Of a stretch of DNA of 64,000 nt, positions 25,672-25,743 are shown piece after piece; within the stretch, counting starts at the first letter, position 1; each line of letters begins with the position of its first letter. The DNA is from Escherichia coli (GTDB lineage Bacteria > Pseudomonadota > Gammaproteobacteria > Enterobacterales > Enterobacteriaceae), in the NCBI RefSeq assembly GCF_017348835.2, contig NZ_CP071375.1; one strand, 5' to 3'. Position numbers and translations under genes: made by a program. The notes under the pieces were generated by a model. That model had not been told where the DNA came from. It saw nothing but the letters and a program-made list of their open reading frames with translations, and did no database searches.

Positions 25672-25743
25672 AAATAGAAATAGAAACAGAAATAGAAATA
25701 GAAATAGAAATAGAAATAGAAATAGAAATAGAAATAGAAATAT
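25672..25743. repeat. Hexanucleotide tandem repeat (AAATAG)n, about 12 copies, one AAACAG variant
   Basis: Read directly; explains the FLFLFL / ISISIS pseudo-ORFs in the track; lies in the divergent intergenic region between the HNH gene and the 590-aa gene. Confidence 0.9.

Follow-up and report, generated by a model that had tools for sequence, protein, structure and literature searches.

The hypermutable hexanucleotide repeat of Escherichia coli lambdoid prophages is the typing locus VNTR-9 and lies in a dead IS911-family element

Does a long hexanucleotide repeat between two divergent genes of an Escherichia coli prophage act as a genetic switch, or is it selectively neutral DNA that merely changes quickly in length? 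The repeat considered here occupies positions 25672..25742 of a stretch of 64,000 nucleotides from E. coli contig NZ_CP071375.1 (assembly GCF_017348835.2), which is referred to as the window. It sits in a 582-bp gap between a gene for an HNH endonuclease (minus strand, 24911..25477) and an open reading frame (ORF) of 590 amino acids (aa) (plus strand, 26060..27832). A preliminary description of the window had proposed that the repeat could be a phase-variable switch for either gene. Our analysis leads to a different conclusion, to which we assign a probability of roughly 85%: the tract is a hexanucleotide microsatellite that is hypermutable but selectively neutral, used as a marker in multilocus analysis of variable-number tandem repeats (MLVA), in the dead orfA gene of an IS911-family insertion sequence (IS) within the nin region of lambdoid (Stx1-type and defective) prophages.

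The microsatellite, (AAATAG)n with no strand assigned, was delimited with Tandem Repeats Finder, by a unit-by-unit reading and by comparison with the published repeat unit of the typing locus TR1. Tandem Repeats Finder reported a consensus of AAATAG with a period of 6, 11.8 copies, 96% matches and a score of 135. The units run as two copies of AAATAG, one AAACAG, eight further copies of AAATAG and a partial AAATA, followed by T, so that the tract consists of 11 full units and five of the six bases of another. Unit 3 (25684-25689) is the AAACAG variant, which carries a T-to-C change, and the longest perfect AAATAG run measures nine units, or 54 bp, from 25688. The A+T content of the tract is 83%. 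A regular-expression scan of the 64-kb window found no other tandem run with at least 4 copies of a unit of 4 to 9 bp, and therefore chance does not explain the tract. The preliminary description was right about the existence and the position of the repeat. It had called the tract perfect and twelve-copy; the hexameric periodicity stands, and the number and the perfection do not, given the 11.8 copies and the variant third unit, and position 25743 already belongs to the flank. Its phrase "divergent promoter region" was likewise correct in placing the tract between the divergent HNH and 590-aa genes, with the words "promoter region" being an interpretation and not an observation.

Comparison with published typing schemes showed that the feature is already known: the tract is the E. 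coli locus designated VNTR-9, O157-9, Vhec4 or TR1. TR1 is listed in an MLVA primer table with a 6-bp AAATAG unit and the forward primer ACTGCATGATAAGCCTCAGG (PMC2246123, Table 2), and TR1, Vhec4, O157-9 and the PulseNet locus VNTR-9 have been equated with one another (PMC3321953; PMC3768571). Both forward primers have exact sites in the left flank of the window copy on the plus strand, with 0 mismatches, namely the Noller TR1 primer at 25580..25599 and the PulseNet VNTR-9 primer (sequence from PMC3321953, Table A1) at 25462..25488. The window copy and the published locus also share the AAATAG unit, the period of 6, the 17 bp past the tract, the HNH-ninG neighborhood of a lambdoid prophage and copy-number polymorphism. 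In contrast, a search that allowed up to 3 mismatches found neither the TR1 nor the VNTR-9 reverse primer in the window. The sites missing on the right mark the window copy as a flank variant with a homologous tract.

The difference in the right flank could be traced to a second IS. The O157:H7 locus (ATCC 43894; Sakai prophage Sp17) agrees with the window from the HNH gene through the left flank and the tract to 17 bp beyond it (AAATATTAAAACAGACCAC), and directly after these 17 bp a truncated IS30 begins, left end first. Both MLVA reverse primers lie inside this truncated IS30 of the O157:H7 Sp17-type locus (positions 4400..5204 of our locus L002 and 774..1359 of L014). In the window, the tract is followed instead by the rest of an IS911-like remnant and the 590-aa gene, that is, by the older right flank that IS30 has displaced elsewhere. 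Since the reverse primers are confined to the IS30 of the O157 form, the window form would not be amplified and would score as a null allele in standard assays.

A 271-bp query around the tract matched 523 of 5426 complete E. coli genomes, and 245 of these 523 matched it from end to end and thus carry the window form. Among the matches listed, window-form serotypes included O26, O111:H8, O145:H28 and O39:NM, and partial matches, which ended at or within the tract, came mostly from O157:H7; one O157:H7 strain, LSU61, showed a full-length match in a separate search. Some E. coli genomes carry two places that match the query, and the window form is also present in the Stx1-converting phages SH2026Stx1 and AU6Stx1.

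The DNA around the tract is a decayed and internally deleted IS3-family (IS911-like) element on the plus strand at 25491..25917, as established by blastn against an intact copy (locus L003) and by tblastn. Of roughly 1.25 kb, 427 bp are left; about 126 bp at the 5' end of orfA (some 30 N-terminal codons) and about 746 bp of orfB have been lost. Local alignment to the intact IS3-family copy gave four collinear plus-strand blocks that include both ends of the element. The first is the left terminal repeat at 25492-25526 (33/35 nucleotides, 94% identity), within a left terminal inverted repeat region that alignment and inspection of the sequence place at 25491..25526. The second, from 25536, covers orfA from about codon 31 onward, and the third, which extends to 25877, runs from the last part of orfA into the first part of orfB. 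The fourth, at 25871-25917, consists of the last 35 or so nucleotides of orfB and the right terminal repeat, of which the inverted repeat remnant GGCAAGTTTTTAGTGATAACTATA occupies 25894..25917. The left end of the element begins 14 bp from the start codon of the HNH gene, where it abuts the minus-strand ribosome-binding site GGAGGAAG.

The tract falls within the orfA pseudogene, whose plus-strand frame at 25521..25805 was recognized from the frame-3 translation and its alignment to the intact orfA product, MKKRNF...IEMENDILKKATALLMSDSLNN. The pseudogene is without a start codon and has an in-frame TAA at 25578-25580. Its general reading is ...TELTKAMDVGISTIPRWRK*LHDKPQGK...IEIETE(IE)nILKQTTTFLMSYSLNNF..., and across the tract of the window it reads ...TELTKAMDVGISTIPRWRK*LHDKPQGKGKTLPPIIQKQIEIHELKKKSQQIEIETE(IE)8ILKQTTTFLMSYSLNNF..., such that the tract reads as (Ile-Glu)n within the former leucine-zipper segment. 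When the repeat was collapsed, the remnant peptide matched annotated IS3 family transposases in a tblastn search of plasmids (61.8% identity, E value of 6e-18), and the nearest intact relatives, at approximately 74% nucleotide identity, are annotated as "IS3-like element IS911 family transposase." A Pfam search with the collapsed peptide gave no match, and the NCBIfam IS3 model reached a subthreshold 12.8 bits on the remnant against a cutoff of 160; because these profiles gave no significant match, the identity of the element was drawn from the tblastn and blastn results. The remnant thus resembles intact IS911 and IS3-family elements in its terminal repeats (94% at the left end), in orfA (about 67 to 74%) and at the protein level (61.8%), and differs from them in its length of 427 bp, its broken orfA and its largely deleted orfB. 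With most of orfB, and hence the catalytic domain, deleted, the element is dead. Intact copies have three imperfect units at the corresponding position and no counterpart of the microsatellite.

These three imperfect units indicate how the repeat arose. The homologous segment of intact orfA, CAAC GCATTG AAATGG AAAACG ACATAT TAAAAA (IEMENDILK), has an imperfect 6-nucleotide periodicity. The shortest natural allele that we found, that of L011 (AAACAG AAATAG AAATAG AAATAT), aligns to intact orfA with zero gaps across the tract, and a single 48-nucleotide insertion, equal to eight extra units, is needed to align the window. The ancestral length is therefore three units, from which the longer alleles have expanded. 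In our explanation, the imperfect periodicity of the leucine-zipper codons (IEMENDIL) was the seed of the repeat, point changes made adjacent units identical after the death of the IS, and replication slippage then gained and lost whole 6-bp units.

Alleles in present-day genomes and phages differ widely in length. Unit numbers were counted directly at about 50 loci, namely 12 window-form and 4 O157-form loci that were fetched and 34 further loci found in IMG/VR by an exact match to a 25-mer from the left flank, and ranged overall from 3 to 17. The 12 window-form alleles had 3, 5, 6, 7, 8, 11, 11, 11, 12, 13, 14 and 17 units, the longest being that of phage SH2026Stx1, and the 4 O157-form alleles had 4, 9, 10 and 12. 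From IMG/VR came 32 window-form loci with 4 to 16 units, for which we calculated a Simpson diversity of approximately 0.91, and 2 IS30-form loci with 8 and 9 units. The same was seen among close relatives: the 45 best matches to the 7-kb surroundings, mostly O111 genomes and 99.3 to 99.8% identical to the window, included eight alleles whose matched lengths (7410, 7416, 7422, 7428, 7434, 7440, 7446 and 7452) rise in 6-bp steps. Variant units occur at differing positions according to lineage (unit 1, 2 or 3 in the case of AAACAG; other variants are AAGTAG, AAATTG and AAATGG), and some have been duplicated in tandem, with three copies of AAATGG in L020 and two of AAACAG in L021. Whole-unit slippage is expected to leave variant units duplicated in this way.

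Published reports of instability at this locus go back two decades. Among 202 German O157 isolates, VNTR-9 had 6 to 23 repeats in 15 alleles, with an index of diversity of 0.90 and 31.7% null alleles (PMC3321953). In parallel serial passage, Vhec4 made single-unit gains at 4.3-4.6e-5 per generation per strain (PMC3777172), and the same paper describes an earlier study in which mutations occurred at only three loci, Vhec4 being one of them. The population counts and these passage gains bear out the earlier statement that the tract is prone to slipped-strand mispairing. A comparison of copy number across related isolates, which had been proposed at the same time, gave differing values, from 3 to 17 units overall and with eight alleles within O111:H8 genomes whose 7-kb flanks share 99.3 to 99.7% identity with the window, and not one identical number everywhere. 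In E. coli, MutS-dependent repair does not act efficiently on loops as large as 6 nucleotides. The 6-base loops formed by slippage in this tract would largely evade such repair, and the length of the tract may drift as fast as it does because of this escape. This would also account for the 6-bp units of most O157 MLVA loci (PMC3321953).

Hypermutability and a location between two divergent genes in an AT-rich region are also what would be expected of a contingency locus, in which changes in unit number alter promoter spacing, phasing or curvature and so turn either of the two genes on or off or adjust its expression. Unit changes at the tract are frequent and reversible, and a 6-bp step would rotate the flanks by about 206 degrees, which could bring an upstream protein-binding site into or out of phase with the candidate promoter at 25929-25958. 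The position of promoter-like sites argues against this explanation. A sigma70 consensus scan of 25300..26200 returned a total of 1 site, against a shuffle expectation of 3.7. This candidate promoter of the 590-aa gene, at 25929..25958 on the plus strand, is no more than a match to the consensus (TTGACG, an 18-nucleotide spacer and AATAAT with TG upstream) and lies 187 bp downstream of the tract, 12 bp outside the end of the IS and about 100 nucleotides before the TTG start of the gene. The scan found no promoter-like site at or adjoining the tract and no minus-strand site facing the HNH gene, and the tract neither overlaps nor separates the -35 and -10 hexamers of any promoter-like site found. 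When the units were read in every register on both strands, no hexamer had both the A in second place and the T in sixth place that the scan requires of a -10 element. With 10.5 bp per turn, A-runs at 6-bp intervals do not fall in phase with the helix and should largely cancel rather than sum to curvature. Because the unit is 6 bp long, the reading frame is kept at any copy number, which leaves no room for phase variation by frameshift.

The genes on either side of the tract lead to the same view. In O157:H7 Sp17, which has IS30 after the tract and lacks the 590-aa gene, the tract is equally variable. In intact phages the HNH gene belongs to the early-right operon read from pR, and it therefore needs no promoter of its own there. 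In Neisseria and Haemophilus, promoter-associated simple-sequence contingency loci have, for example, repeats between the -35 and -10 hexamers or tetranucleotide tracts upstream. The tract studied here is like them in being a hypermutable, short, noncoding tandem repeat upstream of a gene and driven by slippage. However, their tracts lie inside a promoter or beside a mapped regulator site and have a demonstrated effect on expression, whereas ours is inherited debris of an IS orfA, 187 bp from the sole promoter-like site, and varies even where the downstream gene is missing. The proposal of a phase-variable switch or promoter element is consequently not supported, and we regard a contingency role of this general kind as improbable. 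A narrower form, in which tract length tunes the 590-aa gene through helical phase or through the extent of an AT-rich patch that lies upstream of 25929-25958 and is silenced by nucleoid proteins of the H-NS type, appears to us more doubtful still; if true, a classic "neutral" typing marker of non-O157 Shiga toxin-producing E. coli (STEC) prophages would be a functional contingency element for an uncharacterized prophage gene.

We also considered whether the tract encodes a repeat of variable length in a genuine small protein. Two minus-strand ORFs span it, one of 60 aa with an (Ile-Ser)n run (25628..25810), which appears as "hypothetical protein" in some RefSeq genomes, and one of 87 aa with a (Phe-Leu)n run (25537..25800); ORFs of 60 to 66 aa are annotated at the locus in several RefSeq genomes, the EDL933 locus is listed as "inside ORF Z3935/Z3936" (PMC3321953), and a 6-bp unit would preserve such a frame whatever the length of the tract. 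Against this, the 60-aa ORF is called only in alleles with at least 11 units and is unannotated in those with 8 or fewer. In one allele, a 1-bp deletion in the flank has led to the ORF being flagged as frameshifted, and therefore no purifying selection is visible on that frame. Moreover, no Shine-Dalgarno sequence precedes the ATG of the 60-aa ORF, the consensus scan gave no promoter-like site on the minus strand, and the ORF is the mere antisense of the IS orfA remnant. These observations suggest that the 60-aa antisense ORF is most likely an annotation artifact, as its length-dependent annotation and the frameshifted allele indicate, and a real small protein is in our judgment highly unlikely.

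Scarcely credible, finally, is a transcribed (AAUAGA)n acting as a length-variable Hfq-binding leader or sponge: read as AAU-AGA, the plus-strand repeat fits A-R-N, the motif of the Hfq distal face, in every triplet, and Hfq of enterohemorrhagic E. coli (EHEC) binds repeated A-R-N motifs (PMC4104026), but the consensus scan found no plus-strand promoter-like site upstream of the tract, the remnant has lost the portion of the IS left end that corresponds to the DNA immediately before orfA in the intact copy, and the tables of Hfq-bound small RNAs (sRNAs) of strain Sakai list nothing at the Sp17 tract (~3,490,4xx-3,490,6xx), the nearest entry being EcOnc06 at a distance of about 4 kb. As these tables, which supplement a crosslinking study of Hfq in EHEC, have no entry at that tract, an Hfq-binding (A-R-N)n RNA is unsupported. 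Rfam searches returned nothing at the tract, either in a scan of 20-32 kb at an E value of up to 1 or in a scan of the whole window at gathering scores. A terminator-like hairpin on the minus strand at 25621..25605 has only 5 pairs.

Some points weigh against our preferred explanation, that of a neutral microsatellite in a dead IS. Neutrality is inferred from the anatomy of the locus and not from measurements of expression, transcription starts or fitness. Distal upstream repeats that modulate promoters exist in other bacteria, and so a gap of 187 bp is no absolute argument. The promoter scan was a simple consensus match, which can miss real promoters. Finally, the AT-rich tract and the island around it could plausibly bind nucleoid proteins of the H-NS type, with an effect of tract length on silencing.

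The genes that flank the tract are those of a lambdoid prophage. The HNH endonuclease gene of the nin region (188 aa; minus strand, 24911..25477) was identified by its match to PHROG 99 (E value of 1.4e-71) and by the RefSeq annotation of near-identical loci; it starts with the ATG at 25477, preceded by the ribosome-binding site described above, and RefSeq relatives have the same start. On the minus strand it is followed by ninG, a Ser/Thr phosphatase gene and Q. In intact relatives the gene order is cro, cII, O, P, ren, ninB, a methylase gene, ninE, the 590-aa gene (on the opposite strand), the IS remnant, the HNH gene, ninG, ninH and Q. In strain ERL04-3476 (positions 10249..12128 of locus L001), the HNH gene beside the tract is split by an IS1203 insertion, and the gene is therefore dispensable in the lysogen.

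The 590-aa gene (plus strand, 26060..27832, from the ORF list) is an AT-rich "moron," or non-phage gene, inserted in the nin region, where it runs against the direction of the nin-region operon and is divergent from the HNH gene. Together with the IS remnant it forms an AT-rich island with a G+C fraction of 0.27 to 0.39, compared with 0.45 to 0.51 in the flanks. Its product belongs to PHROG 9230, a family of unknown function, and gave no Pfam, NCBIfam or PADLOC match; a search of 1.84 billion cluster representatives found only 15 relatives. An AlphaFold model of moderate confidence (predicted local distance difference test score of 67.6) has a disordered, Ser/Thr-rich stretch of 127 residues at the N terminus and then an all-helical body, for which Foldseek found no fold match in the PDB at an E value of up to 0.001. 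A homologue with 30% identity (JAMHJE010002270.1, 6001..7857 of locus L018) is located directly after a chaperone-usher (TcfC-type) fimbrial cluster, with no obvious prophage.

The prophage in the window is defective, as can be seen from the annotation of PE164, the nearest genome (99.8% identity). At about 28300..29955, a truncated Dam-type methylase gene and ninE directly adjoin the genes for excisionase and integrase (ORF 28885..29955, plus strand), and therefore the whole region for immunity and replication, with cI, cro, O, P and the promoter pR, has been deleted. The prophage adjoins yfaA/gyrA and carries nleA and an nleG-family gene. The presence of these type III effectors makes it possible to think of the 590-aa protein as a secreted effector, which is speculation. 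Across the Q antiterminator gene from the tract, Rfam gave two subthreshold matches, an Esr41-like sequence at 21331..21420 (plus strand, 32.3 bits against a gathering score of 102) and STnc100 at 21597..21802 (minus strand, 37.7 bits against 47); prophages of EHEC are reported to carry short sRNAs at that position relative to Q. Farther away, at 42771..42939, there are two copies of an 87-bp unit of the repetitive extragenic palindrome/bacterial interspersed mosaic element (REP/BIME) type, and 42819..42889 matched the Rfam family naRNA4 with 76.4 bits. Repeat DNA of this kind is ordinary in the E. coli chromosome, and the window therefore extends into the core genome.

What, then, does the locus mean for E. 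coli? As a biological switch the tract is most likely irrelevant, and as a typing marker it is of practical use: VNTR-9 is among the most discriminating loci of the MLVA schemes for outbreak surveillance of E. coli O157 and was still in routine use in 2023 (PMC10062581). The two flank forms and the origin in an IS911-family orfA are useful footnotes to that knowledge rather than discoveries. The locus provides a clean example of the birth of a microsatellite, in which three imperfect orfA units were homogenized and then expanded. One explanation for the frequent null alleles of VNTR-9 could be that the IS30 flank has been lost or changed; in strain FRIK2455 (L016), IS1203 lies next to the truncated IS30, an example of a change in this flank. 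The form with the 590-aa gene, which is widespread in prophages of O26, O111 and O145 and in Stx1 phages, would escape the standard VNTR-9 assay.
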